DNA of 13,172 bases, from IMG/VR virus record IMGVR_UViG_2778261453_000011, positions 1-13,172 of that record; one strand, 5' to 3'. The notes beneath the pieces were generated by a model. It had not been told where the DNA came from. It did no database searches and saw only the letters and a program-made list of their open reading frames with translations. This DNA comes from a virus. Lineage: Duplodnaviria > Heunggongvirae > Uroviricota > Caudoviricetes. Made by a program: the position numbers and the translations under genes. Numbering within the stretch: the stretch's first letter is position 1; each line of letters begins with the position of its first letter. This document shows, piece by piece, positions 1-13,172 of this stretch.

Positions 1-332
1 ATTTCGCCGTCTGCCTCCGCAATGGCCACCGCCACATCCAGCACATCTTCCGCTTCACGCGTATCGTGTTTCACATCCTCGATCTCACGTAACGCCGCAC
101 GACGACCAATTTTAAAGTTCGTATCCAGCTGACCGATAATGGTTGCGCTAATCGCATTAATTTCTGACGTAAACGCGGACAGCGCAGGCTGATTACGCAG
201 TACCTGTTCGATCTTCGCTTTCTAGGAAGCCTCACATTCACCATCTGCACAGGCCACCAGGTAGGCAGCATTAATAACCGCCTGTGCCAGATCGCGTTTC
301 TCAAACTTTCCTTTTTCCGGTTAACATGACAT
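1..332 (-). pseudogene. TerB-like (tellurite-resistance-family) protein gene, 5' portion, continues beyond window start; frame contains in-frame TAA (321-323) and TAG (222-224)
   Basis: Minus-strand frame reads ...KFEKRDLAQAVINAAYLVACADGECEAS*KAKIEQVLRNQPALSAFTSEINAISATIIGQLDTNFKIGRRAALREIEDVKHDTREAEDVLDVAVAIAEADGEI, with the repeated hydrophobic-A-x-ADGE pattern of TerB-type domains. The only in-frame ATG (332-330) is followed three codons later by TAA. The alternative open frame (ORF track 71..412) translates to W/R-rich junk. Confidence 0.4.
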
Positions 333-425
333 ACCAATAACTCTTGTCTAAAAAGCCAGCAAGATAAAAAGCCAGTATTCACGACCACCAGCGTGTTTAC
401 TGTACTGCACAAGGTTTACAGGTAC

Positions 426-443
426 AAAAAAACCGCTCAGCGG
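426..443 (-). terminator. Weak intrinsic-terminator-like hairpin (CCGC-loop-GCGG followed by T7 on the minus strand)
   Basis: Plus strand has A7 (426-432) then CCGCTCAGCGG (433-443); on the minus strand this is a GC stem followed by a 7-T run. Sits at the boundary between the AT-rich island and the TerB-like gene. Confidence 0.3.
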
Positions 444-484
444 CGGGTTTAAGTTGTGTGGCGAAGTAACCACTCTTAACACGA

Positions 485-522
485 TATAATACTTTTTGCG
501 TACGCGTTAGGATTTTTATAAA
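485..522 (+). promoter_or_regulatory. Candidate sigma70 promoter region for the AT-rich cassette (perfect TATAAT at 485-490; TATAAA at 517-522; 8-bp palindrome GCGTACGC at 499-506)
   Basis: Consensus -10 hexamers in an AT-rich leader upstream of the ATG at 569; no good -35, so low confidence. Confidence 0.25.
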
Positions 523-568
523 CTATGCGTCCCCATTCTCGCTATCTTTAGTCGGTCCTGGAATACAC

Positions 569-1015
569 ATGAAAGTTAGAAGCATAGGATTTACAATAAA
601 TAACAATAACAAAAATATTAATACCGTTGACGTAATGAATGCTTTTATCAACGCATCAAACAGAGAACACAGTCGCACAGACTATACTCGTAAAATTCTC
701 ATTTCGGATGTGAATGATTTCTATTATGGATTAGTTGTCACATTCAGAAACCAAAAAAAGAACTGTAAGTCGCAATTTGTTGATGGTAAATTCCAGCTTA
801 AAATTGAAGATCTTCAAGGAAGTGACAAACTTGCTAATTTCAACTTTTTCTTAATTAAAAAATCTAATCTTTCTGGTCTCTATATGTATCACCACGGTTC
901 ATGCAGTCTGAACACTCTCTTTTCTCATTTAGAAACAATAAGTAATGAATTTATCAGAAATCAAAATAAAGAAGAAATAAAAAACTTGGTGATAAACCAA
1001 AACAAAAAGAAGTAA
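569..1015 (+). CDS. Hypothetical protein A (148 aa), N/K-rich, no recognisable motif; first gene of AT-rich cassette
   Basis: ORF in the ORF track; first ATG after the upstream stop; very low GC compared with flanking phage DNA; weak SD (GGAA). Confidence 0.55.
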   Translation: MKVRSIGFTINNNNKNINTVDVMNAFINASNREHSRTDYTRKILISDVNDFYYGLVVTFRNQKKNCKSQFVDGKFQLKIEDLQGSDKLANFNFFLIKKSNLSGLYMYHHGSCSLNTLFSHLETISNEFIRNQNKEEIKNLVINQNKKK

Positions 1016-1059
1016 CTGCAATAAATAAAAAATACAAAGAAAGACTGACTTTCAGCCTT

Positions 1060-1494
1060 ATGACAAATAAAAACAACATTCAGAGTGTTTTATGTCAATT
1101 CAAAGAGATTAAAAGCACAAGCTTTAAATTTAATTATATAGATTTTAAAGGTGGACCAATGACTGCGCTTGAACAATTTGTTAACACCACCACAATAGAT
1201 ATGAATTTTAATTCTAGCGACAGAACAAAAGTGCAACAACTATCTCAGAATCTTTCAAATATTTATAATTCTATGAGTGGAGTTGCTAAAGCACAGGTTA
1301 TTGCAGTAAACCATGCAGGAATAGAAAAAACCATTGATTTTATGAACTGCCCTGTTTTTTTTGAAACATACGATTTCGATATAATTGCCGATAAAGTCAA
1401 TGGATTGACAAACGATAATTATACAACAAACCCTGTTTTTGATATGATAAAAGAAGAAATGCTGAACGGGACGAATAAAAATGCCTTTATATGA
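1060..1494 (+). CDS. Hypothetical protein B (144 aa; alternative start ATG 1159 with SD AAGGTGG giving 111 aa)
   Basis: ORF in track; 3' end overlaps the next gene by 14 nt (ATG 1481 / TGA 1492-1494), indicating translational coupling and an operon. Confidence 0.55.
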   Translation: MTNKNNIQSVLCQFKEIKSTSFKFNYIDFKGGPMTALEQFVNTTTIDMNFNSSDRTKVQQLSQNLSNIYNSMSGVAKAQVIAVNHAGIEKTIDFMNCPVFFETYDFDIIADKVNGLTNDNYTTNPVFDMIKEEMLNGTNKNAFI

Positions 1495-2029
1495 ATGGCT
1501 AATAAATAAAAGATTGAGGTATCAGTACCTTACACTGCTTGCATTCTCGATCCTGGCATTGCTTGCACTTTACCTATTGTACAGAAACACACCTAAAGTA
1601 AGTGTTAACTTTTTTGAGTTTTATCATAAAAACTTACGAGGCTATCTCTTCTCCGGTTTTATTTCCGTGGGCTCATTTTTATTGAGCCTGCATACCTTTG
1701 TCATAATAAATTTACGCGATAAGGTTTTTGCAACTCAGGAATATAAGGAAATTTATAGCATTGCCACTGGTATACCTATTGACAAAATCAATGATAGTGT
1801 ACTTTATAAACCTTTAGACAATTTATCCTCATTTATTAATACATCAATATTATGTTCTATCACAACAGCAATTGCACAATTCACTATTGGACTTTCAACT
1901 AATTTATATGCATGCTTATTTTGCGTATGGCTTGCAATACTAACGGTATTTCTTTTATTACATTGCCTCATCATAATCAGACAAAATATTAAAATTTTAT
2001 TAAAGCAACAGAGAAAAAAAGGGGGGTAA
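1481..2029 (+). CDS. Hypothetical integral membrane protein C (182 aa), four predicted TM helices, basic C-terminal tail
   Basis: Hydrophobic stretches YLTLLAFSILALLALYLLY, YLFSGFISVGSFLLSLHTFVII, SILCSITTAIAQFTIGLSTNLY and ACLFCVWLAILTVFLLLHCLIII; tail RQNIKILLKQQRKKGG; coupled to the upstream ORF. Confidence 0.7.
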   Translation: MPLYEWLINKRLRYQYLTLLAFSILALLALYLLYRNTPKVSVNFFEFYHKNLRGYLFSGFISVGSFLLSLHTFVIINLRDKVFATQEYKEIYSIATGIPIDKINDSVLYKPLDNLSSFINTSILCSITTAIAQFTIGLSTNLYACLFCVWLAILTVFLLLHCLIIIRQNIKILLKQQRKKGG

Positions 2030-2038
2030 TTCCCCCTA
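2019..2038 (-). terminator. Intrinsic terminator immediately after Q (GGGGG-loop-CCCCC followed by T8 on the minus strand); possibly bidirectional
   Basis: Plus strand A7-GGGGGG-TAATT-CCCCC-T (2014-2037). On the minus strand the GC stem is followed by an 8-T run, directly downstream of the Q stop (2042-2044). The stem overlaps the stop codon of protein C. Confidence 0.55.
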
Positions 2039-2041
2039 ATA

Positions 2042-2383
2042 TTACAACATTGAAAGCACACCATCCAGAAAACCAAGAGCTGTTTGCAACTCTTTTCTTA
2101 TTGTCCCATCAGAACACTTCTGCTTCTTTGCAATAGTTCTTAGTGAGATGCCGATAACAAAATGAGCAATAACCAACTCATACTCTTCGGGCTTATATTT
2201 CCGCAATCGCGCAACACAGCTGTCAATCATGATTCCTTCATCATCATCGCATTGTTGGCGTGTTTTCTTTCCATGAGGTAGTAAACCTTTAAACCCTGCA
2301 GCAACAGGCTGCCAGTCCACACCACTGTTATCTGCTGCAGCCCATGCACCCCAGCGGTCCAATACTTCATACATATCACGCAT
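2042..2383 (-). CDS. Late antiterminator Q (small Q family, as in phage 21 / DLP12 QuuD)
   Basis: Translation MRDMYEVLDRWGAWAAADNSGVDWQPVAAGFKGLLPHGKKTRQQCDDDEGIMIDSCVARLRKYKPEEYELVIAHFVIGISLRTIAKKQKCSDGTIRKELQTALGFLDGVLSML; position at the end of the nin-like region after RusA; SD GGAGA 6 nt before ATG 2383 (ORF track extends to TTG 2398). Confidence 0.7.
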   Translation of the reverse strand: MRDMYEVLDRWGAWAAADNSGVDWQPVAAGFKGLLPHGKKTRQQCDDDEGIMIDSCVARLRKYKPEEYELVIAHFVIGISLRTIAKKQKCSDGTIRKELQTALGFLDGVLSML

Positions 2384-2400
2384 CAACTTTCTCCACAAAA

Positions 2401-3395
2401 TCAGGCCAGCACGCCAATTGCCAGTGCACGATCGATAAAACGAAATATCAGCTCCAGCTGGGAGCCATACTTCTCTTCAAATGCCACGGTATCCGCATGC
2501 AGCTCGTCGTGATGCTTTCTGCACAAAGGCAACACAAAGAGGTCATGCGCTTTTGTAGCCATTCCACCCTGACCGTGACCTATCAGGTGGTGGGGATCAT
2601 CAGCAGGTTTTCCACAACATGCGCACGGCTGCGTCTTAACCCATCGCGTGTACTTTTCATTAACCCAGCGGCGACGTTTTGGGCGTAACATAAAAGACTC
2701 CGGCGACTCCGGATCCACTTTCAGCGCCAGCACCTTTTTCGCTTTATCCTGGATGATGCTGGTGGCAGGAACCGAAGGCACAAGGTCACTTTCCCGGGTG
2801 ACAGACGGCACAACAGGCTTCGGTAATCTCAGTGCCTTACGGGCTGCACTTTCCGGTAAGGCATCCGCCAGATCATTACGAATCAGCCACCAGCACAGTT
2901 CCGGCATTGTCACAACGTGACTGTCATCAAAACCGAGATCCCGACGCACGACAGACAACACCCAGCGGGCACAGTTATCCGTTGCCATTGATTCCAGCCG
3001 TTCCGTGAACTGATCGCGCAGCTGGTTATCGCAGTGCCAGCACAGACGGATTGCGCCCGGCGCGTGTCGCATTGTGGTCATGTTCTCGCTGTGCCAGTCG
3101 GAATGAGGCCACTGACAGCCTTTTTCACGAAGTAACCAGCTTTCAAGACATTCCACGCCACCAGCACGACGGATCACTGCCTCATTGCGGAACACGGCCC
3201 GAACGGCAGGATCATCCGCCAGCGGTTGTGATGCCGCCGGAACGGCACCACTGGCGAAAGATGAATAACGTTCCGGCTCAGGCTCCAGCAGGACACGCCC
3301 TGCATAAACAGGGGCATCAGCTCTGAACCTGGCCTGAACAATACGATCCCCATACGCGGGGCAATTTCAGGGGTCAGTAGTGCTCTCACGGTCAC
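2401..3395 (-). CDS. DUF968/YdfU-like protein with C-terminal Cys/His-rich (HNH-like) motif; apparent -1 frameshift near its 5' end
   Basis: Main frame (to 3367) reads ...CACCGKPADDPHHLIGHGQGGMATKAHDLFVLPLCRKHHDELH... and is protein-like for ~57 codons upstream of its first possible start (GTG 3195). The only start with an upstream stop is GTG 3395 in the other frame; frames meet at a G4 run (3358-3361). Confidence 0.55.
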
Positions 3396-3396
3396 C

Positions 3397-4239
3397 TCAA
3401 TGAACGGTATCGAGCAGCTTTAACAGCTCAGGGAATCGGGATTCGAAGAAATGCGGCTGCGTCTCGCGCGGATTTGCAGGACTGGTGATGTTCTTGCCGA
3501 ACATGCAGCCTTTCGCCGTCAGCGACCAGAATTTTTTGATGTTGTTAATCGCGGTACGGCTGTATCGTTCGCGTTGTTCAACGATCCCCAGCTTCACCAT
3601 CTGGTGATATGCCTGATTAGCCGTCAGGCGGATACCATACTGTTTCAGCAGTGCACTCAGCGACAGCGTGGGGCGACTTGAGCCATCAGGCGCGTCAGCA
3701 GGAGCATCAATGGCATAGCGCGGTGCCAGATTCGGTAAGCCAACAGCCTCCTGAAGCTTCTGACAGGCTCCAAGCACTGATGAGTTAGACAGGTTTAATT
3801 CCCGGCGCATAAAGTCCAGCAGGATCACGCCAGCCTGCATCTTGTCAGCAGCCTGCCCGGATAATTTTTCCGGTGTGCTGGTTACCATATCGAAAGTACG
3901 GATCACCTTCAGATGGAATGACGGGCTGATCCACATTGCATAGGCATACACCAGTTCCTTGCAGACATACGTTCCTCCATTCCGCCCTTCTATTTTACTT
4001 ACTGGTTTACTACCCAAATTTTGGGTAGTTTCATTGAATGAACCGACACCCAAATTTTGGGTATCGATCAATTCCTGAACCAGCTCAGTAATCTGTTGGC
4101 TGGAAAGAAACTTTCCCGGCTCCTTAGTTCTGGCATTTGCACCAGATGCAACAGCAGCCCGATGCAGATCGTTCAGGCTGTAACGCCCATAAGCATCACG
4201 ACGAACTTCAATACCATCAATGACCATCAGATTATTCAT
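3397..4239 (-). CDS. KilA-N domain protein (antirepressor-like)
   Basis: N-terminus MNNLMVIDGIEVRRDAYGRYSLNDLHRAAVASG...GTYVCKELVYAYAMWISPSFHLKVIRTFD matches the KilA-N pattern; SD AGGAGA 8 nt upstream of ATG 4239 (ORF track extends to 4272). Confidence 0.7.
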   Translation of the reverse strand: MNNLMVIDGIEVRRDAYGRYSLNDLHRAAVASGANARTKEPGKFLSSQQITELVQELIDTQNLGVGSFNETTQNLGSKPVSKIEGRNGGTYVCKELVYAYAMWISPSFHLKVIRTFDMVTSTPEKLSGQAADKMQAGVILLDFMRRELNLSNSSVLGACQKLQEAVGLPNLAPRYAIDAPADAPDGSSRPTLSLSALLKQYGIRLTANQAYHQMVKLGIVEQRERYSRTAINNIKKFWSLTAKGCMFGKNITSPANPRETQPHFFESRFPELLKLLDTVH

Positions 4240-4258
4240 ACTTCGTTTCTCCTCTTGA

Positions 4259-4648
4259 TCAGGCGGCTGCACCCGCCGTTTTCTCGTACTTACTGATAGT
4301 GATCTCGACCTTCCCTTCCGGGATAACCGGTCCCCACTCCACCAGCATTCTTTTCACCTGACTGTCGTCTTCCCACACACCCGCGTGGGTCAGGGCGTCA
4401 AACAGCGCCTTGTTATAGTTGTCCAGATCGCGGATCCGGTTATCCGGAGGAAACAACACGATCTCCACTGAAGCAGGTGCCGACGTTGGTTTCGGCAGAC
4501 GACGTAACTGCTCAACTATTGCTGCACACGCCGCGCTCTGGAATTTTCGCCCCGCCGCGCTTATCAGGCTCTTACCTGCAAACGCCCCTTTGTTGGGGTG
4601 TCGCCAGTACGTGTTCACGCTGGGCGGAAAAGGCAGGATCAGCTTCAT
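4259..4648 (-). CDS. rusA: RusA-family Holliday junction resolvase
   Basis: MKLILPFPPSVNTYWRH...DLDNYNKALFDALTHAGVWEDDSQV matches the RusA family signature (LPxPPSxN, DxDN, DD); ATGA start/stop overlap with the upstream gene. Confidence 0.8.
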   Translation of the reverse strand: MKLILPFPPSVNTYWRHPNKGAFAGKSLISAAGRKFQSAACAAIVEQLRRLPKPTSAPASVEIVLFPPDNRIRDLDNYNKALFDALTHAGVWEDDSQVKRMLVEWGPVIPEGKVEITISKYEKTAGAAA

Positions 4649-4971
4649 GCTTTCAGGCCCCTCTCATGTAACCAGTGGGTTGCACGCAGCCTTGCGTTTT
4701 CCTCACCGGCAAGCAGTGAGCGGATAATCCCGACCGCCTCGCTGTCGTCGTCCTTCACCGCGGTATGAAGCGTTATCCCCCGGGCCACGCCACGCTTTAT
4801 CGTGATGAAGCCTTTTTTCTCCAGTGCGCGAAGATGCTCCACCGCTGCATTCACTGAACGGTATCCCAGCATGGTTGCCACCTCCTGATTGGTTGGCGGG
4901 AAGCCACGTTCTTTCTGATAAGAAATCAGCATATCCAGCACCTGCTGCTGGCATTGAGTTAACGTCGTCAT
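4645..4971 (-). CDS. LexA N-terminal DNA-binding-domain-only protein (winged HTH; no S24 peptidase domain)
   Basis: LTQCQQQVLDMLISYQKERGFPPTNQEVATMLGYRSVNAAVEHLRALEKKGFITIKRGVARGITL resembles the LexA DNA-binding domain as I recall it ([55 protein letters not shown]...); only 108 aa; ATGA overlaps at both ends. Confidence 0.7.
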   Translation of the reverse strand: MTTLTQCQQQVLDMLISYQKERGFPPTNQEVATMLGYRSVNAAVEHLRALEKKGFITIKRGVARGITLHTAVKDDDSEAVGIIRSLLAGEENARLRATHWLHERGLKA

Positions 4972-5621
4972 GCCACCATCTCCCTGACCAGTTTTTCCGC
5001 CTGCTGGCGAACCTGCGCCAGAAACGCCTCACCACATGCCTCAAGTTCATCGCGCCCGATGTAGCTGATTGCCGGTCCCTTCCAGGTCTTGTCAAAAACA
5101 GCAATAGCACCAGCGAAAAAAGCTCCTGTCGGTACCTGCTTCTCGTCTTTCGGGATAAACCATACAGGCAGTTCAAAACCAATACGCCCGCGAATAAAAG
5201 CAATATGATCTGCATCTTCCGGCCACCACACTTCGCTGGTGGCAGCTTTGATCAGGAAAACATAGCGCCCGCCCTTATCACGCATGGCACTGGCATGTTT
5301 CATGATGTAACGCATGCCGGTGATGTATTGCCCCTCATGCTGACTGGCGCGGCTGTATGGAGGATTACCAAAGGCAGCACCTTTAAGCTCCGCAAGGCGT
5401 TCTGACCAGTCATGCGCCAGCGCGTTGTCTTCCGCCGTGTAATACGCGGCACATTTGGCGTTATCACCGTCAGTGAACAGATCCAGAACAAACGGGCCAA
5501 ACAGGGTGTTAATTCCCCAGAAAATGTTGTCCGGCGTGCGCCACTGATCACCCACTTCCTTCAGTTCATGGGCTGGTTTGTTCCGCAGTTCCACCAGCTC
5601 CTGGCAATATTTATTACTCAT
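4968..5621 (-). CDS. Phage Dam-type N6-adenine DNA methyltransferase (orphan)
   Basis: NPPY motif (AAFGNPPYSRA), size ~217 aa, location in the replication/nin module; start ATG 5621 preceded by GGGGG (ORF track extends to 5666). Confidence 0.7.
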   Translation of the reverse strand: MSNKYCQELVELRNKPAHELKEVGDQWRTPDNIFWGINTLFGPFVLDLFTDGDNAKCAAYYTAEDNALAHDWSERLAELKGAAFGNPPYSRASQHEGQYITGMRYIMKHASAMRDKGGRYVFLIKAATSEVWWPEDADHIAFIRGRIGFELPVWFIPKDEKQVPTGAFFAGAIAVFDKTWKGPAISYIGRDELEACGEAFLAQVRQQAEKLVREMVA

Positions 5622-5715
5622 TAAGCCCCCACGTAAAAAGCATCCGCAATGTCTCCGGAAGTACAACCCGGATGGGCTTCAATGAATTTCTGAACGTCAT
5701 TTAACAGACTCATGA

Positions 5716-6708
5716 TCACCCCCTGAATCCTGCCGGGATCTGGCTGTAGTCCACGTTGTCGTAACTGGCTTTGAAGTACGGGTCTTCACGTTTTTCTGTG
5801 TGCGTGCTGACGGACGGCGATAAGCGCAGGGAAAGCTCATCCCATTTTTCCCGCAACTTCGACGGGCTGAGCACGTTACGGCACCAGAACGGATCGCGGC
5901 TGACGCGGCTGTACATCTCGCAGATTTGTTTGTGAGTACGACCATCCTGCACACACATCAGGCGAATTTCGTTTGCCCATGCTGTCCAGTTCGGTTCTTT
6001 GGGACGAACCACCTCGCCGTCACATTCGGCGGCCTGCTCGTACAGGGCGATGATTTTTTTCCAGAGCCACTGTGCGCAGGTCAAATCATCCTGCGTTCCC
6101 CACTGGCGCTTTTTAGGGCTGAATACAACCGCATCAGGATGGCGAGTTAAAAACTCCTGTTCAGCCGTTTGCGTGTCCGGTTGCGAAGCGTCCGGACGAG
6201 AAGAGGTTTTATTCTCTGTAGTAATCTCTGTTGTATTCTCTGTAAGATCATTGGGCCATTTTGACCCGATGACAGCGTGTCGTTTTGAACCAATGGATCG
6301 TATCATTTTGCGCCCATCCATCAGGTCACTTTGACCCGATGGAGAAGTGCATTTTGACCTGATGGATTCGTTCACTTTGACCTCTTCTAAAAGCTCACTT
6401 TCATAGTTGATCGTGTAGAAGTTGGTCATGTCACGCTTCGATTTATTGAGTTGCTCGCGACGCAAAACCCCAAGTGATTTCAGGCTTGCAAATGTGCGTT
6501 TCAGAGTGGACTCTGACCAGAACGGAAACTGCTCCAGCCACTGTTCTGTCGTGTTATAAACCCAGCGAATTCCGCCATGCTCAGTGCCTGAATTCGTTTC
6601 ATTCAGCCAGTAATGAAGCTGCTGCAACACAATTGCCTCATTCAGACCAATACGGCATGCAAGATCACGATTTATCACAATGGGCTGGGATGTCATTAAC
6701 AGGCTCAT
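5716..6708 (-). CDS. Replication initiator (lambda O-like replisome organiser) with iteron origin inside its coding sequence
   Basis: 330 aa; N-terminal HTH-like region ([24 protein letters not shown]); six ~23-bp-spaced iterons in the middle of the gene; position downstream of the cro/cII-like genes. Confidence 0.7.
   Translation of the reverse strand: MSLLMTSQPIVINRDLACRIGLNEAIVLQQLHYWLNETNSGTEHGGIRWVYNTTEQWLEQFPFWSESTLKRTFASLKSLGVLRREQLNKSKRDMTNFYTINYESELLEEVKVNESIRSKCTSPSGQSDLMDGRKMIRSIGSKRHAVIGSKWPNDLTENTTEITTENKTSSRPDASQPDTQTAEQEFLTRHPDAVVFSPKKRQWGTQDDLTCAQWLWKKIIALYEQAAECDGEVVRPKEPNWTAWANEIRLMCVQDGRTHKQICEMYSRVSRDPFWCRNVLSPSKLREKWDELSLRLSPSVSTHTEKREDPYFKASYDNVDYSQIPAGFRG
6257..6384. 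repeat. Iteron array (origin of replication): 6 copies of C(A/G)(T/C)TTTGACC(C/T)GATGG at ~23-bp spacing
   Basis: Copies start at 6257, 6281, 6304, 6327, 6350 and 6373; adjacent 12-bp-period TCTCTGT x3 at 6213-6243. Confidence 0.65.
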
Positions 6709-6877
6709 GACCGACCTCTATTTCCCTGAATTTACGACGAAACTGTTCGAGCGGACTGAAGCATTCATGTTCATAGCCTTCACGGAGGTAGATAACCCGT
6801 TGTGTTTCCGGCTCCCAACGAATGACTCTGACGGGCACTCCGTAGTGATCTTTGAACCAGCGGTTAACTTGTCGCAA
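6665..6877 (-). CDS. Hypothetical small protein (70 aa; TTG start with SD AGGAG) or C-terminal part of a frameshifted ~130-aa gene
   Basis: Globular-looking translation ...[69 protein letters not shown]; frame open upstream to 6904. Confidence 0.5.
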
Positions 6878-7056
6878 AGGACTGTCTCCTTCTGCCGGTT
6901 GAAATCACCCACAGCCCACTCTGCAAAGCTGTGGGTTACAATTTCCCTGTCACCTGGTACATTCACTGCATAGCAATACTCCACCTTCGCTTTTCCACCC
7001 GGTACAGGAAGCGCAATCAGTTGCGAGCGACGGTAGTGTGTTGTTAAACTGTTCAT
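6718..7056 (-). CDS. Hypothetical protein (112-aa ORF); the first ~50 codons look coding, the rest may be out-of-frame read-through
   Basis: ATG 7056 overlaps the YdaT-like stop (ATGA) with SD GGAGA upstream; the C-terminal 60 residues are S/N-rich, low-complexity and overlap the 70-aa ORF. Confidence 0.45.
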
Positions 7057-7610
7057 GCGTTAGTTTCTCCACAACCAGAAGCAATCGACGCCACGACGCC
7101 CGGAGCTGCACACTCGCGGGCGTTACTCTTTTCTGGAGCGCAGAAGATTTTGTAGACCAGTGCTGCATGCTCCTGGAGCTTCGAAATTGAGAGATACAGT
7201 TCGTCGTTAATTGCTGTCTTCTCATGCGGTTCCACTACACCGTCTTCGATTGCTGAACGAATCTGTCTGGAATAACTGCCGATCTGTTCAATGACTTCCA
7301 GCAGACGCTGGTTAATATCGGCGTTGTCCACATCCTCGACGTCAGGAAGAGACACAAAGACGCCATTTGCAGACTGCGCCACAGCGTCAGCAATGAAGTG
7401 AGTTCCACCAGCACGTTGTAAAATCATTGCCCATCCCAGCGGGAAAATCTGATCGCCATCGGCACGAAGGCGATTGAATAAAGCGTTCTCTGTTACATCC
7501 AGCCACTCAGCTGCTTCAGCGTAACCACCCGGCAACGCCGCGATAGTTTTTCTGACAGCTTTCACGTACCACTCAGGCTGTTTTTCTACTTTCCAGTGAT
7601 GCTTACCCAC
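7053..7610 (-). CDS. YdaT-like protein (CII-position early regulator)
   Basis: Immediately downstream of the cro-like gene; strong SD AAGGAG 6 nt before GTG 7610 (ORF track extends to ATG 7643, overlapping cro). Confidence 0.6.
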
Positions 7611-7632
7611 GGCTATCTCCTTAAAACTGTGG

Positions 7633-7881
7633 TTACTTTCCATCTGATAAGTCTTTAATCTTTTGAAAAATATCTGGACGTAATTTTTCTTTTGATACGC
7701 CAGTGGTCATTTCAATGAATATCGAGAGCTTTGCAGGGGGACGCTTTTCTCTGTTCAACCAGTTCCAGACATGTTGTTGCTTTACTAAACGACCACTGCT
7801 GGCTGTGAGCTTCCGAGCCAATTCTGATTGACCACCAGCCAGAGCGATTGCCTCTGATAAGGCTAATTGCTCAGGTGTCAT
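7633..7881 (-). CDS. Cro-like / YdaS-family HTH regulator
   Basis: 82 aa, MTPEQLALSEAIALAGGQSELARKL...IEMTTGVSKEKLRPDIF; divergent from the cI-like gene across the operator region; SD AGGAGA. Confidence 0.7.
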   Translation of the reverse strand: MTPEQLALSEAIALAGGQSELARKLTASSGRLVKQQHVWNWLNREKRPPAKLSIFIEMTTGVSKEKLRPDIFQKIKDLSDGK

Positions 7882-8018
7882 AGCTTTCTCCTATCTGTAA
7901 GTAGTAAAGTTGTTGATAACTTCGATTATACAACTACAACAACTTTTATCACAACTTTTAGATGTTGGAAAGCTAAAACATAAAGTTGTAACCTCAATAA
8001 AAACGAGGGGGATATGTT
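7882..8018. promoter_or_regulatory. Right-operator-like region: divergent promoters with repeated AAAGTTGT / ACAACTTT half-sites
   Basis: AAAGTTGTTGATAAC (7906-7920), ACAACAACTTTT (7936-7947), ACAACTTTT (7951-7959), AAAGTTGTAACC (7982-7993) between the divergent cro-like and cI-like genes. Confidence 0.6.
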
Positions 8019-8705
8019 GTGAAAACATTGGCAGAAAGACTAAAAAGCGAAAGAGAAAAAGCAGGAATGAGTCAGGCGCAACTAGCTGAAAAAATTGGAC
8101 TTTCACAACAATCCGTAGCGAAAATCGAGAATGGAGAAACTCAACAGCCTCGGAAAATTAAAGAGATTGCTAAAGTGTTAGGGGTTTCTCAAAAGTGGTT
8201 GCAATTGGGCATTGAGGATAACGCGTCTTTCCCAAACCTTGTTGTAAAGGAGGCTGAAAGTACAACATTAGATCCTGACATTTTTGCAAACATTCCTGTC
8301 CTAGATGTCGAGTTATCAGCGGGTAATGGATGTTTGGCTGAAATAGTTGAATCAACTGTAGACTGGTTCCCGCTAAGAAGGATTGATTTAAGGAAAGCTG
8401 GTGTATGTGTCTCCAATGCAAAGATCGTAAAAATTTGGGGTAATAGTTTACTACCTGTACTTAACAATGGAGATTTTGTTGCTGTTGATGTTTCCCAAAC
8501 AGTTCCTATTCGTGATGGGGATCTTTATGCTATACGTGATGGCGTATTACTTAGAGTTAAAATATTGATCAATTTACCTGACGGTGGTCTGATTCTAAGA
8601 AGTTTCAATAAAGATGAGTATCCAGATGAAATACTCACCTTCGAAGATAGGCGTTCCAGAATTCACGTTATAGGTAGAGTATTCTGGTCATCGCGCACTT
8701 GGTAA
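8019..8705 (+). CDS. cI-type repressor: N-terminal XRE HTH plus C-terminal S24 (LexA-like) autopeptidase domain
   Basis: HTH MSQAQLAEKIGLSQQSVAKIENGE; Ala-Gly cleavage site (LSAGNG); Ser in GNSL and Lys in RVK as catalytic dyad candidates. Confidence 0.85.
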   Translation: MKTLAERLKSEREKAGMSQAQLAEKIGLSQQSVAKIENGETQQPRKIKEIAKVLGVSQKWLQLGIEDNASFPNLVVKEAESTTLDPDIFANIPVLDVELSAGNGCLAEIVESTVDWFPLRRIDLRKAGVCVSNAKIVKIWGNSLLPVLNNGDFVAVDVSQTVPIRDGDLYAIRDGVLLRVKILINLPDGGLILRSFNKDEYPDEILTFEDRRSRIHVIGRVFWSSRTW

Positions 8706-8732
8706 TGCATCAAAAAACACTCCTTCAGAAAT

Positions 8733-8837
8733 TTAGTTACCATTATTACCCGCCTTTTCAATCTTCCTCCCGTGATTTGAGAGTTTCCAATCACGGAAGG
8801 AAAGTGTCCATTGTGTAATTAAAAGCGCATCGTCCAT
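8733..8837 (-). CDS. Possible small ORF (34 aa, MDDALLITQWTLSFRDWKLSNHGRKIEKAGNNGN) convergent with cI
   Basis: Perfect SD AAGGAGG 4 nt upstream of ATG 8837; contains a 12-bp inverted repeat (8767-8778 / 8789-8800); no homology recognised. Confidence 0.2.
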   Translation of the reverse strand: MDDALLITQWTLSFRDWKLSNHGRKIEKAGNNGN

Positions 8838-8879
8838 ACAACCTCCTTTTTTGATAACCCTAGCCCCCATTTCACATCC

Positions 8880-8945
8880 GTCAAAACCACATAAAGTTGT
8901 TGATAACAACCAAAACAACAACTAGATTACAACTTAAAGATGTTG
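8880..8945. promoter_or_regulatory. Left-operator-like region: second copy of the operator repeats, promoter of the plus-strand early operon
   Basis: Exact 15-bp AAAGTTGTTGATAAC at 8893-8907 (identical to 7906-7920) followed by ACAACAACT and ACAACTTAAAG. Confidence 0.5.
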
Positions 8946-9038
8946 CAGTAACGAACAGGCAGGACGCCCACGAAGTAGCCGCCGGTGGCGTATGAATGAC
9001 CGGATGATTCGTTAAATACTATGTGTAAGAGAGCGCAA

Positions 9039-9242
9039 ATGAACCGTTATTTCACATGCTCGTTTTGTGGCGCAAACGAGCTGCAGGCAAAAAAAATCAT
9101 CGCCAAAGGCGGAAAAGATGAAGTTGCTATCTGCTCTGAGTGCGTAGTCTTGTGTGTCGGGGCATTAATCAATATCAGCACAACTATTCATTTCACACCA
9201 AATGAGAATGCGCCTTTAGATGCGCGGAAATCTGGAGGTTAA
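9039..9242 (+). CDS. Small protein with ClpX-type N-terminal zinc-ribbon (C4) domain
   Basis: YFTCSFCGANELQAKKIIAKGGKDEVAICSECVVLCVGAL matches the ClpX zinc-binding domain pattern as I recall it ([32 protein letters not shown]); first gene after the left operator. Confidence 0.6.
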   Translation: MNRYFTCSFCGANELQAKKIIAKGGKDEVAICSECVVLCVGALINISTTIHFTPNENAPLDARKSGG

Positions 9243-9331
9243 AGAACAAAATGAAAGTCCAGATTTTAAACAATAGTGGTGAAGTCGTTTGGGCGTAAAA
9301 CATGACCGCGCGTAGACCAAGGGAGGAAAAA

Positions 9332-9508
9332 GTGGGAATAGTTAGAAATCAAGCAGATATATTGAAAATCAGCTCTGAATTGCTTGGAGTTTTGAAAAGT
9401 GAGCTCACCACACATGGCATCGAGCCCACTGACGAAAATTTAAGTTGGGTTTTGTCGATTATTCAACAATCACTCAAGCCCAGCCTCAGCAAACTTTTTA
9501 TCGAGTAG
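9332..9508 (+). CDS. Hypothetical small protein (58 aa from GTG 9332)
   Basis: SD GGGAGG 5 nt upstream of the GTG; 3' end overlaps a convergent minus-strand ORF by 39 nt. Confidence 0.35.
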   Translation: MGIVRNQADILKISSELLGVLKSELTTHGIEPTDENLSWVLSIIQQSLKPSLSKLFIE

Positions 9509-9661
9509 TGCTTCGAACTTATCGTAAAGCTTGCTTATGTCGTCTATCGGGTTTTCTGACGTACTGTAATTTTTATCTGATGTCATGGCAGCAGTCTGAT
9601 ATGCAGTGTGAGTCTTAACCGATAGTTGGAATAAATAAAGAATTTTTTCTTCTTTGGTCAT
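9470..9661 (-). CDS. Hypothetical small protein (63 aa, MTKEEKILYLFQLSVKTHTAYQTAAMTSDKNYSTSENPIDDISKLYDKFEALLDKKFAEAGLE)
   Basis: SD AAGGAAA 7 nt upstream of ATG 9661; AT-rich; opposite orientation to the surrounding operon. Confidence 0.4.
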   Translation of the reverse strand: MTKEEKILYLFQLSVKTHTAYQTAAMTSDKNYSTSENPIDDISKLYDKFEALLDKKFAEAGLE

Positions 9662-9780
9662 AACTATTTCCTTCTTGGCTATATGAAAACACCAAGATAC
9701 CACCGAGCCTGAAGTGGTGAAAAGACAGGCACATAACAGCTAAGTATTTTCAACCAGAGAGAATCCTTAGCGTTGTGGTG

Positions 9781-10060
9781 AATGCGGCTCAGCGCACGCG
9801 GGTTAAGGTTGAGGCTGACAGTCGACCTTCTGTGGATACCCACCCGTCTGGTGTGCAACCTTCGCCAGGCACCGGGAGGCACCCGGCACCACAACTTTAT
9901 GCTGTGTGTAGTCCTGGCGGTACCAGTTTGTACCCTTGCTTCCGGCTGGTACCGCTCTTTTTACAAAACAGAGAAGAGCATCACCGGACGACGGGCTCAT
10001 AACCCAATCCATCCGGGCGGCTGCCACCGCAGGTGTTCTTCTCTGTTTTGTGGAGAAACT
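9781..10060 (+). ncRNA. Candidate structured noncoding RNA / regulatory element (GC-rich; nested inverted repeats; internal intrinsic terminator)
   Basis: GC-rich island between AT-rich flanks; GGCACC x3 (9859-9883); 10-bp perfect stem plus T-run (9917-9962); 14-bp perfect IR ACAAAACAGAGAAG / CTTCTCTGTTTTGT (9963-9976 / 10038-10051); in-frame translation is R/C/H/W-rich junk. Confidence 0.3.
9917..9962 (+). terminator. Intrinsic terminator (GCGGTACCAG - 19-nt loop - CTGGTACCGC - TCTTTTT)
   Basis: 10-bp perfect inverted repeat followed directly by a T-rich run on the plus strand. Confidence 0.55.
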
Positions 10061-10099
10061 AACCGACCTTGCAGGGTCGATATGATGAGGAGCAGCAAA

Positions 10100-10462
10100 A
10101 TGGCTAGCGAACGCAGTACTGATGTGCAGGCATTTATCGGGGAGCTGGACGGCGGCGTATTTGAAACCAAAACCGGCGCAGTTCTCAGTGAAGTCGCTTC
10201 CGGTGTGATGAACACGAAAACCAAAGGTAAGGTCTCGCTCAACCTGGAAATCGAACCATTTGATGAGAACCGTGTGAAAATCAAACACAAACTCTCATAT
10301 GTTCGCCCAACTAACCGCGGGAAAATTTCCGAAGAAGACACCACCGAAACGCCGATGTATGTCAATCGCGGTGGTCGCCTGACTATTCTGCAGGAAGACC
10401 AGGGACAATTACTGACTCTTGCCGGTGAACCTGACGGAAAACTCCGCGCAGCAGGTCATTAA
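10100..10462 (+). CDS. yfdP: YfdP-like hypothetical protein (120 aa)
   Basis: SD GAGGAG 7 nt upstream of ATG 10100; MASERSTDVQAFIGELDGG...; position and size match the first gene of the CPS-53 yfdPQRS cluster (from memory). The ORF track's longer 9782 start is rejected. Confidence 0.6.
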   Translation: MASERSTDVQAFIGELDGGVFETKTGAVLSEVASGVMNTKTKGKVSLNLEIEPFDENRVKIKHKLSYVRPTNRGKISEEDTTETPMYVNRGGRLTILQEDQGQLLTLAGEPDGKLRAAGH

Positions 10463-10527
10463 TATCGTTCTTAATTAACTGATTATTTATCTCATCACTG
10501 AATATCTTAATATAGTGAGGACTTATT

Positions 10528-11352
10528 ATGTCTCAGAACTTAGACGCAACCGCAATTAATCAAATCCATGCCCTTATTTCTGCTCAGGGTGTTAATGAAA
10601 TTATCAGTAAGATTGGTGCCGATGCTGTGGCATTGCCTGAGAATTTCCGCATTCATGATCTGGAAAAATTTAATTTAAATCGCTTCCGTTTCCGTGGTGC
10701 GCTTTCCACTGCCTGCATCGATGACTTTACCCGTTATTCTAAAGATCTTGCAGATGAAGGCACCCGCTGCTTTATCGATGCCGATAATATGCGAGCCGTC
10801 AGTGTGCTTAACCTGGGTACTATTGATGAACCAGGTCACGCAGATAACACCGCCACTCTCAAACTGAAAAAGACAGCACCGTTTTCTGCTCTGTTGTCTG
10901 TTAATGGCGAGCGTAACTCCCAGAAGTCACTGGCAGAATGGATTGAAGACTGGGCCGACTACCTTGTGGGCTTTGATGCTAATGGTGACACCATTCAGGC
11001 AACCAAAGCGGCTGCGGCAGTCCGTAAAATCACGATTGAAGCAAACCAGACCGCTGATTTTGAAGATAATGACTTCAGCGGCAAACGCTCCCTGATGGAA
11101 TCTGTCGAAGCGAAGACCAAAGACATTATGCCAGTGGCATTTGAATTTAAATGCGTTCCGGTTGAAGGCCTGAAAGAACGTCCGTTTAAATTACGCCTCA
11201 GCATTATCACTGGCGATCGTCCTGTACTGGTTCTGCGCATTATTCAGCTGGAAGCAGTGCAGGAAGAAATGGCTAACGAATTTCGTGATCTGCTTGTTGA
11301 GAAATTCAAAGACAGCAAAGTAGAAACCTTTATTGGTACTTTCACCGCCTGA
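10528..11352 (+). CDS. yfdQ: YfdQ-like protein (DUF2303 family), 274 aa
   Basis: Long clean ORF with SD GTGAGGA; size and position before the HD-domain gene match CPS-53 YfdQ (from memory). Confidence 0.7.
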
Positions 11353-11364
11353 TTTCATTACTGC

Positions 11365-11386
11365 AAATGCCCCTGCGGGGGCATTT
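11365..11386. other. Symmetric hairpin AAATGCCCC-TGC-GGGGGCATTT between yfdQ-like and yfdR-like genes (possible attenuator or terminator)
   Basis: 9-bp stem with 3-4 nt loop directly after the yfdQ-like stop codon. Confidence 0.3.
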
Positions 11387-11480
11387 ATGGAAACGTAATT
11401 AACTCAATAATCGCCGGATGGTGCGGGATTCCTTTTACCCGAATTCAGCGCGGTGCAGCGCATATAAAGTGGAGAACAAA

Positions 11481-12017
11481 ATGTCATTTATTAAAACTTT
11501 TTCCGGGAAGCATTTTTATTATGACAAGATAAATAAAGACGACATCGTGATTAACGATATCGCGGTTTCCCTTTCAAATATCTGTCGCTTTGCAGGACAT
11601 CTTTCACACTTCTACAGTGTCGCCCAGCATGCGGTGCTTTGCAGCCAGCTGGTGCCGCAGGAATTTGCTTTTGAAGCGTTAATGCATGATGCAACAGAAG
11701 CGTATTGCCAGGATATTCCCGCTCCACTGAAACGCCTTCTTCCTGACTATAAACGGATGGAAGAAAAAATAGACGCCGTAATCCGTGAGAAATACGGGTT
11801 ACCCCCGGTTATGAGCACGCCTGTGAAATATGCCGATCTCATCATGCTGGCAACCGAACGCCGCGATCTCGGGCTTGATGATGGCTCTTTCTGGCCAGTA
11901 CTGGAAGGTATCCCGGCAACAGAAATGTTCAAAGTTATTCCTCTGGCTCCGAGCCATGCCTACGGGATGTTTATGGAGCGCTTTAACGAGTTATCGGAGT
12001 TACGCACATGCGCATGA
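11481..12017 (+). CDS. yfdR: HD-domain phosphohydrolase, YfdR-like 5'-deoxynucleotidase (178 aa)
   Basis: H...HD motif (SVAQHAVLCS ... ALMHDATEAY); SD GGAGA before ATG 11481; 178 aa matches YfdR as I recall it. Confidence 0.8.
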   Translation: MSFIKTFSGKHFYYDKINKDDIVINDIAVSLSNICRFAGHLSHFYSVAQHAVLCSQLVPQEFAFEALMHDATEAYCQDIPAPLKRLLPDYKRMEEKIDAVIREKYGLPPVMSTPVKYADLIMLATERRDLGLDDGSFWPVLEGIPATEMFKVIPLAPSHAYGMFMERFNELSELRTCA

Positions 12018-12358
12018 ATGTTTTCGAAATGGAAGGGTTTCTTCGCGGGAAATGTGTACCGCGAGATCTGAAAGTGAATGAAACAAATGCTGAGTATCTG
12101 GTGCGTAAATTCGATGAAGTACGTGCTGAGGCTCGCAACGAGGGTATTAACTATACCGCAAGCCGTCTTGCTGCTGCTTTCAATCACGGATTTATCAATA
12201 AGCCTTTGGCTGAAGTTTTCGACGTTACACGCATGATTCTGTCAGCGAAAGAAGAGTTGGCTAATGAACCGCATCCGATTGATGGCCTGTCTGGTGAATA
12301 TGCGGAGAAATCCCTTGAAGAATGGGCGGAACAGATTCGCAAAGGAGGCAACCAGTGA
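12008..12358 (+). CDS. yfdS: YfdS-like hypothetical protein (116 aa)
   Basis: Overlaps the yfdR-like stop; SD GGAG 8 nt upstream; followed by an overlapping GTG start of the next gene. Confidence 0.65.
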   Translation: MRMNVFEMEGFLRGKCVPRDLKVNETNAEYLVRKFDEVRAEARNEGINYTASRLAAAFNHGFINKPLAEVFDVTRMILSAKEELANEPHPIDGLSGEYAEKSLEEWAEQIRKGGNQ

Positions 12359-12840
12359 CTGGACATGCAGCAATCCTCGACATGTGCTGTGGCAGTCGCA
12401 TGTTCTGGTTCGATAAGAAGGACGACCGGGCGATATTTAGCGATATCAGAAAGGAAGAGCACACATTGTGTGATGGACGGCGCCTGATTATCAGTCCTGA
12501 CCTGATAGCTGATTTTCGTGCACTACCATTTGCAGACGCATCTTTTTCGATGGTTGTATTCGACCCTCCGCATCTTGAGCGTGTCGGTGATAACGCCTGG
12601 ATGGGAAAGAAATATGGACGGCTGAATAAAGACACCTGGCGTGATGATTTGCGGCAGGGATTTAAAGAAGCCTTTCGTGTGTTGCGTCCATACGGCGTTC
12701 TGATTTTTAAATGGAATGAAACGCAAATACCTGTTCGCCAAATATTGGTACTGACCGACAGAAAGCCTGTTATCGGTCAACGAACAGGAAAGGGTGACAA
12801 GACCCACTGGATTATTTTTATGAAGGAGGGCAACCAGTGA
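12355..12840 (+). CDS. Small SAM-dependent (probably DNA) methyltransferase, DPPH motif (orphan)
   Basis: Motif I-like AILDMCCGSRMF and motif IV-like VVFDPPHL; SD AAAGGAGG 6 nt before GTG 12355, which overlaps the yfdS-like stop (GTGA). Confidence 0.65.
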   Translation: MTGHAAILDMCCGSRMFWFDKKDDRAIFSDIRKEEHTLCDGRRLIISPDLIADFRALPFADASFSMVVFDPPHLERVGDNAWMGKKYGRLNKDTWRDDLRQGFKEAFRVLRPYGVLIFKWNETQIPVRQILVLTDRKPVIGQRTGKGDKTHWIIFMKEGNQ

Positions 12841-12989
12841 GCAAGATTGATTATCAGGCGCTACGGGAACGTTATTCACCTAAGCCAGTACCTGAATGCT
12901 CTGTTTGTGGCGAGGAAATGTCAATACAGCGTATATCTGGAGCACATGTCGTTTATGCCTGCTCCAGTTATGGTGGTGATGGAGATTAG
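12837..12989 (+). pseudogene. Small CxxC-containing ORF truncated by the IS2 insertion (stop codon supplied by the first 3 bp of IS2)
   Basis: GTG 12837 overlaps the MTase stop; MSKIDYQALRERYSPKPVPECSVCGEEMSIQRISGAHVVYACSSYGGDGD then TAG = first bases of the IS2 inverted repeat. Confidence 0.4.
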
Positions 12990-13172
12990 ACTGGCCCCCT
13001 GAATCTCCAGACAACCAATATCACTTAAATAAGTGATAGTCTTAATACTAGTTTTTAGACTAGTCATTGGAGAGCAGATGATTGATGTCTTAGGACCGGA
13101 GAAACGCAGACGGCGTACCACACAGGAAAAGATCGCAATTGTTCAGCAGAGCTTTGAACCGGGGATGACGGT
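12987..13172 (+). mobile_element. IS2 (IS3 family) left end, partial; continues beyond window end
   Basis: Left inverted repeat TAGACTGGCCCCCTGAATCTCCAGACAACCAATATCAC from 12987, then insC starting [31 protein letters not shown], both matching IS2 as I recall it. Confidence 0.85.
13078..13172 (+). CDS. insC: IS2 transposase OrfA (InsC), 5' part
   Basis: ATG 13078; N-terminal peptide identical to my recollection of IS2 InsC. Confidence 0.85.

Follow-up and report, generated by a model that had tools for sequence, protein, structure and literature searches.

Why does a methyltransferase gene in a temperate phage genome stand between two nearly identical short sequences, each of which carries the end of one gene and the start of the next? 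The question is raised by positions 1 to 13,172 of the IMG/VR virus record IMGVR_UViG_2778261453_000011 (Caudoviricetes), a stretch of 13,172 nucleotides (nt) that is called the window in what follows, and in which a predicted methyltransferase (MTase) gene is preceded by an open reading frame (ORF) of 116 aa, ORF116, and followed by the 5' part of an ead/Ea22-like gene. We refer to the sequence at these junctions as J, the copy upstream of the MTase gene being J1 and the copy downstream J2 (Table 1). An initial annotation of this DNA had proposed that the two copies form a cassette junction, through which the MTase gene is gained or lost by short-homology recombination. Our own answer, to which we give a probability of about 0.6, is that J is the standard boundary word of Ead/Ea22-type arrays in Escherichia temperate phages and prophages, and that it serves there as portable homology for the exchange of cassettes.

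Structure of the boundary word

The two repeats bracket the 161-aa MTase ORF exactly as the initial annotation had described them, in sequence and in position, and each contains a Shine-Dalgarno (SD) sequence and an overlapping stop and start. The GTGA overlaps are at 12355-12358 and 12837-12840, with AAGGAGG 6 and 7 nt before the GTG, and E. coli CFSAN004176, in which this stretch is identical, is annotated in RefSeq with the same GTG starts at 12355 and 12837. Both junctions have the overlapping stop and start, together with the properly spaced SD inside the upstream coding sequence, by which a coupled gene pair is recognized, and from this arrangement we infer that J probably couples the translation of successive genes. 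The folding of the RNA around J was no different from that of shuffled sequences (z-scores of +1.3, -0.7 and +1.2), and no structure sequestering the SD was found in the folds at J. Both copies had also been said to encode a ...G(G)NQ* C-terminus (the asterisk marks the stop). The G-N-Q-stop is indeed common to them, but the AAGGAGG is read in a different frame, as K-G-G in J1 and as K-E-G in J2.

The exact common core of J1 and J2 is 12 nt long (GGCAACCAGTGA), to which is added the AAGGAGG, set off by a 1-nt indel. This core occurs exactly twice in the window, and three times if one mismatch is allowed, against 0.08 expected and with none of 200 shuffles reaching three; simple arithmetic nevertheless predicts about 5 pairs of 12-nt repeats by chance in 13 kb, so that the repeat alone is not rare. 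What is non-random is the same functional position of both copies, the identical 6-nt spacer that lies outside the SD and the GTGA, and the comparative evidence presented below. In a repeat search of the whole window J was not among the top 20 families, being hidden by its 1-nt indel and by numerous chance repeats, and it was recovered by a targeted search. In most related MTase-bearing alleles J1 is ...GGCAGCCAGTGA, which we call the 'GGCAGCC' type, and the exact match between J1 and J2 is then only 7+7 nt; the allele of the window, with 7+11 nt, is the best case among alleles. An inverted repeat at 12480-12499 and 12842-12861 (85%) was also considered and was judged to be a chance match around the palindromic TGATTATCA.

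Combinatorial use of the boundary word

We scanned IMG/VR for the exact J word, with one optional base, and clustered the 150-nt flanks at 80% identity. Among the matches listed, comprising 128 sites on at least 120 contigs, at least 25 left flank types are joined to at least 32 right flank types in at least 74 combinations, whereas a control word taken from the neighbouring overlapping junction, between yfdR and ORF116, gave 1 left and 5 right types in 45 sites. Within the same matches listed, most of the upstream genes end in ...(F)A(A/E/D)(Q/E)(L/I)RKGGNQ*, the Ead/Ea22 head MS(K/E)I(D/N)YQ... starts 18 of the 32 downstream types (75 of 126 sites), and 14 of the 32 right types are unrelated cargo, the MTase among them, diverging directly after J. 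Typical boundary genes have the tail ...LRKGGNQ* and the head MSKIDYQALRE..., and at typical junctions the conservation extends for about 19 nt to the left and about 28 nt to the right of J, giving a tract of about 60-65 nt. In the window the first ~28 nt 3' of J2 (12841-12868) are this conserved Ead head, which extends the common tract rightward (profile +1 to +28). Words resembling J with no more than 2 edits number 1-3 per prophage locus and about 0 in shuffles, and at 136 of 174 such sites two ORFs, each at least 40 codons long, do overlap by stop and start. The MTase gene does sit as a cassette, as had been proposed, but the word at its ends is a general boundary of Ead/Ea22 arrays and is not specific to the MTase.

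When one genome per species was searched (185,579 species, 596 Gb), the 17-mer gave 82 matches against approximately 70 expected by chance from arithmetic, and only the two Escherichia matches among those 82 are genuine; among species-representative genomes J is found in Escherichia only. The Ead-type tail 5' of J1 (12192-12341) was also seen at 201 places on plasmids, in phage records of about 80-115 kb (PH444, vB_EcoM-813R1 and vB_EcoM-Ro157c2YLVW), and in lambdoid, Shiga toxin (Stx), phiV10-type and Rac-type phages, and therefore the array, with its word, is spread over phages of widely differing type.

The following mechanism may be proposed. The 17-nt J combines the last codons of one gene, K-G-G-N-Q-stop, with a perfect SD, a 6-nt spacer and a GTG overlapping the TGA, and ribosomes would be handed through it from one promoter-less gene to the next by translational coupling. 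Together with about 20 nt of tail codons and about 28 nt of Ead head codons it recurs at many junctions in many phages and would provide portable homology, at which homologous recombination, whether of the phage Red/RecT/Erf type or by host RecA, could swap, insert or remove whole genes while leaving reading frames and expression intact. The MTase would then be a promoter-less single-gene cassette inside the boundary between tail and head, and for this reason the word would be present on both of its sides. Relaxed homologous recombination by phage recombinases has been demonstrated experimentally (PMC3945230), and the tail-J-head tract of about 35-65 nt is a likelier substrate for it than J alone. 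The pattern was presumably made by recombination at J rather than by selection after random joining.

Table 1. Position of the boundary word, the genes around it and other features of the window.
Feature	Coordinates	Strand	Remarks
J1 AAGGAGGCAACCAGTGA	12342..12358	+	SD AAGGAGG, 6-nt spacer, MTase GTG overlapping ORF116 TGA
J2 AAGGAGGGCAACCAGTGA, one extra G	12823..12840	+	SD, 7-nt spacer, ead/Ea22 GTG overlapping MTase TGA
Conserved tail codons 5' of J1	12323..12341	+	consensus TT.GCcGC.cAGCTTCGCA across left-flank types (profile -1 to -19)
116-aa upstream ORF (ORF116), YfdS position	12008..12358	+	annotated CDS; end ...AEQIRKGGNQ*
MTase, 161 aa, predicted class I S-adenosylmethionine (SAM)-dependent	12355..12840	+	motif I ILDMCCGS, motif IV FDPPH; end ...HWIIFMKEGNQ*
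ead/Ea22-like gene, 5' part (MSKIDYQALRERYSPKPV...)	12837..12989	+	PF13935 Ead_Ea22, 8e-9; cut by IS2
IS2 left end (IS3 family)	12988..13172	+	matches annotated 'IS3-like element IS2 family transposase'; truncates ead gene and rest of array
CI-like repressor	8019..8705	+	
Dam-family N6-adenine DNA methyltransferase	4968..5666	-	PF05869, 1e-45
330-aa ORF	5716..6708	-	no Pfam match
Three copies of a 15-23 nt direct repeat	6249..6364		CATTTTGACCCGATG and variants; spacings 70 and 23 nt

Prophages with and without the methyltransferase gene

We fetched 80 loci encoding relatives of the MTase and read both of their boundaries. In the clade with at least 90% nt identity, the MTase follows an ORF116-type tail or other Ead tails (...FAAQLRKGGNQ*, ...FAAELRKGGNQ*), and it is also found after DUF977 genes (CAGGAGGTAGCGCAGTGA) or another gene (GCAGGAGGTAAACAGTGA); on its right side are at least three different ead genes, an MSNYLYW gene, or non-coding DNA. 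The MTase genes in these differing contexts are 92-100% identical in nt and have a J-like word at both boundaries, and, counted by side, the differing contexts of the J1-MTase-J2 unit number at least 4-5 on the left and at least 6 on the right. With the extra G in J2 the unit is unchanged between at least four flank combinations (the window with locus L126, and loci L127, L128 and L131). In the alignment the tract common to MTase contexts begins at TTCGCAAAGG, and the edge tracts of the moving unit measure 23-35 nt for tail plus J and 35-45 nt for J plus head.

Local BLAST of positions 10500-12990 of the window against all fetched loci gave 101 internal breakpoints of homology, in a sample of loci whose bias is considered below; 31 of them are at 12330-12359, where J1 is found, and 19 at 12840-12869, covering J2 and the head, while none of the 101 was inside the MTase gene. 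A further 31 breakpoints were at 12110-12119, which is an in-gene site of ORF116 and has no J-like word.

Positions 11950-12990 were also used as a BLAST query against 5,426 complete E. coli genomes and phage records, and here too the matches ended at the J copies (query positions 394-409 and 892-910). The 150 nt directly 5' of J1 were present in 737 of the 5,426 E. coli genomes, the same 150-nt left tract was contiguous with the MTase in 303, and the MTase itself was present in 855; therefore the tail with the MTase, the tail without it, and the MTase behind other neighbours are all common. We also built the predicted deletion product, with 12109-12358 joined to 12841-12987, and searched for it. 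This query was covered in 16 genomes, of which 15 carry the MTase and matched in two pieces spanning 879 bp. The sixteenth, E. coli KFu019, gave one contiguous match with a single J (junction ...attcgcAAAGGAGGCAGCCAGTGAgcaagattgattatcagacgctacggg...), orthologous flanks and no MTase. An MTase-less allele with a single copy of the repeat was what the initial annotation had suggested looking for in related prophages, and KFu019 is such an allele, a single J connecting the two flanks that are found in the window. Its array is located between replication protein P and NinX, and it differs from the MTase-bearing form by 482 bp, one J being left. In TOE17 the same 116-aa gene is followed by J and then directly by another ead gene (junction ...cagattcgcaAAGGAGGCAACCAGTGAgcaagattga...).

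The J of KFu019 is of the J1 'GGCAGCC' (G) type found in most MTase-bearing alleles, as would be expected after a crossover within the terminal CCAGTGA, or if the MTase had never been present in this allele. The flanks of KFu019 are 5-8% diverged from every MTase-bearing allele sampled, so that the event may have been a gain or a loss.

Perhaps J1 and J2 recombine directly with each other, and exactly the MTase plus one J is thereby deleted or inserted; the process could be short-homology or illegitimate recombination, slippage during replication, or excision of a mini-circle of J and MTase able to enter another J. KFu019 is the exact product expected from this, both in the size of the difference and in the single J, the type of which is compatible with such a crossover, and there is a precedent in T4-type phages, where circles form between nearby regulatory repeats (PeSL mini-circles, PMC2839356). 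However, about 30 bp is quoted as the minimum for Red-beta (PMC3945230), and the exact match of J1 to J2 is below this in the window and further below it in most alleles; the divergence of its flanks means that KFu019 is not a recent deletion derivative; and a double crossover in the longer flanking homologies gives the same end state. Because the exact match is so far under 30 bp, direct exchange would be possible only as a rare short-homology event, and as an account of the whole pattern it seems doubtful to us. The cassette idea of the initial annotation is right in outline, but the exchange of J1 with J2 that it implied is unsupported at 7+11 nt and is probably a minor route.

Boundary words in other prophages

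Distant homologues of the MTase (72-77% nt identity) are bracketed by repeated words that differ from J. The word AAGGCGGTGCCGCATGA is present on both sides of the homologue in loci L170, L180 and L188, AGGGGGCCAAATGA brackets that of L146, and GAGGCCAGCAATGACTAA that of L144. An exact boundary repeat of at least 12 nt was found in 10 of 70 unique MTase contexts versus 1.2% of cross-locus pairs, and 0.2% of shuffles reach a common string of 10 nt between boundaries. Two words were followed through IMG/VR. The first, AAGGCGGTGCCGCATGA, with the tail ...GGAA*, occurs at 127 sites, where 95 left and 97 right types form 109 combinations; the second, CGCGAGGGGGCCAAATGA, with the tail ...LREGAK*, occurs at 120 sites, where 46 left and 34 right types form 84 combinations, and the MTase head follows it at 24 of these. 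The nearest named phages are those of Cronobacter for AAGGCGGTGCCGCATGA and those of Klebsiella for CGCGAGGGGGCCAAATGA. Such boundary words thus belong generally to these accessory regions and are specific to the host genus, the Escherichia version being that of the window. As a separate observation, AAGGCGGTGCCGCATGA adds the same GGAA* end to many unrelated proteins.

The 3' end of the MTase gene is informative about what is conserved in J. The J2 of the window gives the C-terminus MKEGNQ*, and the variants AAGGAGGCGACCAGTGA, AAAGAGGCAACCAGTGAGTAA and AAATAGGCATCCAGTGAGTAG give MKEATSEQD*, MKEATSE* and MK* respectively. At this end the DNA of J persists although frame and peptide vary, and this speaks against a purely protein-level conservation at the MTase end. 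We also noted that one extra G in the G-run of J2 sets the MTase end, which is either the GTGA overlap (MKEGNQ*) or 1-3 codons more in another frame (MKEATSE*, MKEATSEQD*), and that both states are common among alleles (12823-12840 in the window versus loci L534, L002 and L133).

A second explanation gives J no role in recombination, its likeness from site to site being the result of functional constraint and of the conserved RKGGNQ peptide, and random illegitimate joints surviving at gene boundaries as in a Hendrix-type model. Of the 17 positions of J, 11 do belong to the SD and the GTGA, most upstream genes have homologous tails (...A(Q/E)LRKGGNQ*), the conserved end of the MTase (F-M/V-K-E/G) encodes an AAGGAGG-like string in all lineages, and the literature describes most mosaic joints as having no boundary sequence that could be found (PMC3029335). 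Against this, the spacer CAACCA is functionally unneeded and yet is identical at unrelated junctions and different by host genus; the word is retained at the MTase 3' end despite the changed frame and peptide; unrelated upstream proteins have the same terminal word in the GGAA* set with its 95 left types; and the neighbouring overlapping junction has no such combinatorial use. The initial annotation had itself allowed that the repeats might simply be conserved C-terminal codons, with all homologous loci containing the MTase. The first half of this is true, J being conserved C-terminal codons (...LRKGGNQ*) for most upstream genes, yet MTase-less loci exist. We consider it unlikely that constraint alone produced the pattern.

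Several observations nevertheless weigh against our interpretation of J as portable homology for cassette exchange. J alone is below the length quoted for Red-beta, and cargo other than Ead shares only J, plus tail codons on one side. Flanking repeats of at least 12 nt are limited to the above-mentioned 10 of 70 MTase contexts, and with 1-3 J-like sites per prophage the arrays are short. Function forces part of the likeness, namely the conserved K-E/K-G codons that end the MTase, the GTGA overlap and the SD. Loci entered the sample through an exact J or through the MTase, and the breakpoint statistics are accordingly biased toward J. The flanks of KFu019 show no nesting with any of the eight MTase-bearing alleles compared, and with a divergence of 5-8% from these no recent clean event is documented. 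Finally, the evidence that would favour exchange is comparative throughout.

The cargo gene and its surroundings

The cargo is predicted to be a class I SAM-dependent methyltransferase, with DNA as its putative substrate: Pfam Methyltransf_11 matches with 22.6 bits (cut-off 21.2), and phrog_954, 'DNA methyltransferase', with 1e-87. Searches of PDB and NCBIfam gave no informative or close characterised relative. The MTase ORF is the only one in the 482-bp unit. Between 11300 and 13000 we found no promoter-like site and only weak intragenic terminator-like matches, none of them convincing as a terminator. Lacking a promoter of its own, a convincing terminator, terminal inverted repeats and any special RNA structure, the cassette relies on the boundary word and the surrounding operon.

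That the MTase gene is an autonomous mobile element (a transposon, an integron-type cassette or a homing element), with the repeats as its target-site duplication or site-specific sites, is highly improbable, for although direct repeats flank a single gene that is found in many contexts, the unit contains no transposase, integron integrase or homing endonuclease, has neither terminal inverted repeats nor an attC-like hairpin at its ends, and is flanked by a 'duplicated' word that pre-exists at hundreds of junctions that never had the MTase. The named classes of element were rejected one by one: a transposon with target-site duplication, having found no transposase or terminal inverted repeats and the word at MTase-less junctions; an integron cassette, having found no inverted repeat at the cassette ends, no structure and no IntI-type gene among the window ORFs; and a moron in the Juhala/Hendrix sense, given that there is no promoter-like site and the MTase gene overlaps both neighbours.

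The MTase is a pseudogene in several lineages, and the cargo is therefore often decaying rather than maintained. It has an internal stop in O157:H7 JEONG-1266 (L003, 1904-2377), is truncated in VE-V11-M (L004, 1503-1859) and is frameshifted in UID2404240032 (L532, 692-1131).

The window is a lambdoid-type prophage. Besides the CI-like repressor, it has on the minus strand Cro/YdaS-like, CII, Dam, RusA, KilA-N and DUF968 genes, and the operon of the MTase runs in the order yfdQ-yfdR-ORF116-MTase-ead, directed away from the repressor side. The J array is within the non-structural (early, accessory) part of this temperate genome, as is the case for lambdoid boundary sequences.

ORF116 is itself recombinant. 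Residues 1-42 match phrog_583, the YfdS-position protein, and residues 36-116 match the C-termini of phrog_614/14548/368, and the DNA of the C-terminal part (from approximately 12116) underlies genes annotated as ead or Ea22-like in other genomes. The N-terminal ~40 aa are common to YfdS-position proteins, as in K-12-type CPS-53, and the C-terminal ~80 aa to larger genes annotated ead/Ea22.

On the other side of the MTase, homology to uninterrupted alleles ends at 12987, and the IS2 insertion supplies the TAG stop of the ead gene at 12987-12989. This insertion was not found in the search of 11950-12990 against the complete E. coli genomes, where the best match, CFSAN004176, is 100% identical only over 11950-12987 and has an uninterrupted ead gene without IS2, and an IS600 upstream; this strain is therefore a relative and was rejected as the source of the DNA.

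The prophage has a second, unrelated methyltransferase, the Dam-family enzyme of Table 1, in the rightward operon beside LexA-DNA-binding-like, RusA and KilA-N genes. The CATTTTGACCCGATG repeats are inside the 330-aa minus-strand ORF, and a possible reading is that this ORF encodes an initiator and that they are the iterons of a replication origin within it, an arrangement like that of lambda O.

Comparison with known systems

For HK620, Clark et al. reportedly described in 2001 seven short conserved boundary sequences. The closest known concept is that such sequences are foci of recombination in lambdoid phages, an established idea that belongs with the modular-evolution model of Susskind and Botstein (Clark 2001; Susskind and Botstein 1978, as cited in PMC3029335), and the J-MTase locus is a new example of this known organisation. 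Like the lambdoid boundary sequences, J is short, conserved at the joints of exchangeable genes with unrelated flanks between phages, and located in the non-structural part of a lambdoid or P22-like genome, and the breakpoints coincide with it, although in a biased sample. Unlike them, it works at single-gene resolution in an accessory array, serves at the same time as SD, as stop/start and as terminal codons, and is matched by counterparts that are host-genus-specific. Neither J nor the tail peptide was found in the searchable literature, the sequences of Clark 2001 not being among those compared, and papers on phage epsilon34 and phage L have nothing on this boundary.

Around non-essential genes in the hyperplastic regions of T4-type phages, PeSL cassettes supply short repeated expression signals, and indels and replacements between related phages map to these (PMC2839356). 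The PeSL (Arbiol et al. 2010, PMC2839356; Comeau et al. 2014, PMC4122927) and J have in common that an expression signal doubles as recombination homology; however, PeSL is a promoter plus a stem-loop terminator acting at the level of transcription, and J is a ribosome-binding stop/start word without promoter or structure. A PeSL-type cassette was rejected here on finding no promoter-like sites between 11300 and 13000, a sigma-70 promoter and a stem-loop terminator being its defining parts. Another comparable repeat is the start-associated sequence (SAS) of Cluster K mycobacteriophages, a 13-bp repeat with 93 sites across Cluster K genomes (Pope et al. 2011, PMC3203893). Both are asymmetric, lineage-specific short repeats with an SD core, placed just 5' of the starts of unrelated non-structural genes, in SAS sometimes with an upstream stop. 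SAS differs in its sequence and host and in its many copies, as compared with 1-3 J-like sites per locus, and no recombination role has been proposed for it, whereas J always has the overlapping stop and start and the conserved protein tail.

In lambda and Stx phages the Ea22/Ead genes have an N-terminal segment and a coiled coil in common (the Ead_Ea22 signature) and swapped C-terminal domains, and a short C-terminal segment of 16 aa is the same in two variants (PMC10834534). That mosaicism concerns the same family and region as the J array, but at the level of protein domains, and the study describes neither the boundary word nor the carriage of non-Ead cargo (PMC10834534). Finally, integron cassettes resemble the MTase cassette as promoter-less single genes in an array with a repeated element at their bounds and an upstream promoter; the integron has IntI and attC, whereas for J general and not site-specific recombination is proposed.

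Implications

We tentatively extend these findings to a broader scheme, although the odds are against it in full. Enterobacterial temperate phages may have a recombinase-free cassette system, in which 'house' words of about 15-18 nt, one to each host-genus lineage (...AAGGAGGCAACCAGTGA for Escherichia, ...GAGGGGGCCAAATGA for the Klebsiella type and ...AAGGCGGTGCCGCATGA for Cronobacter-related phages), would provide both the ribosome hand-over and the homology with which single-strand-annealing recombinases of the phages shuffle promoter-less accessory genes, methyltransferases included. This recombination would keep the words uniform within a lineage by concerted evolution, and they would act at the lineage level as a barrier to gene exchange or a passport for it.

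In the debate on phage mosaicism, homologous recombination at short linkers has been set against random joining followed by selection, and well-defined, abundant linkers have so far been lacking. J is such a linker: it is 17 nt long, stands in hundreds of natural recombinant contexts, comes with a matched pair of alleles of which one carries a cargo gene and the other lacks it, and has independent counterparts in other host genera. Direct tests therefore become possible, in which tract length, spacer sequence and recombinase background are varied, and the locus is valuable chiefly because it makes the linker-recombination model tractable to test. For the biology of these prophages, J explains the presence or absence of the MTase among otherwise similar E. 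coli prophages, including relatives in O157 and of Stx phages, and it flags the Ead/Ea22 array as a site of routine accessory-gene swapping.

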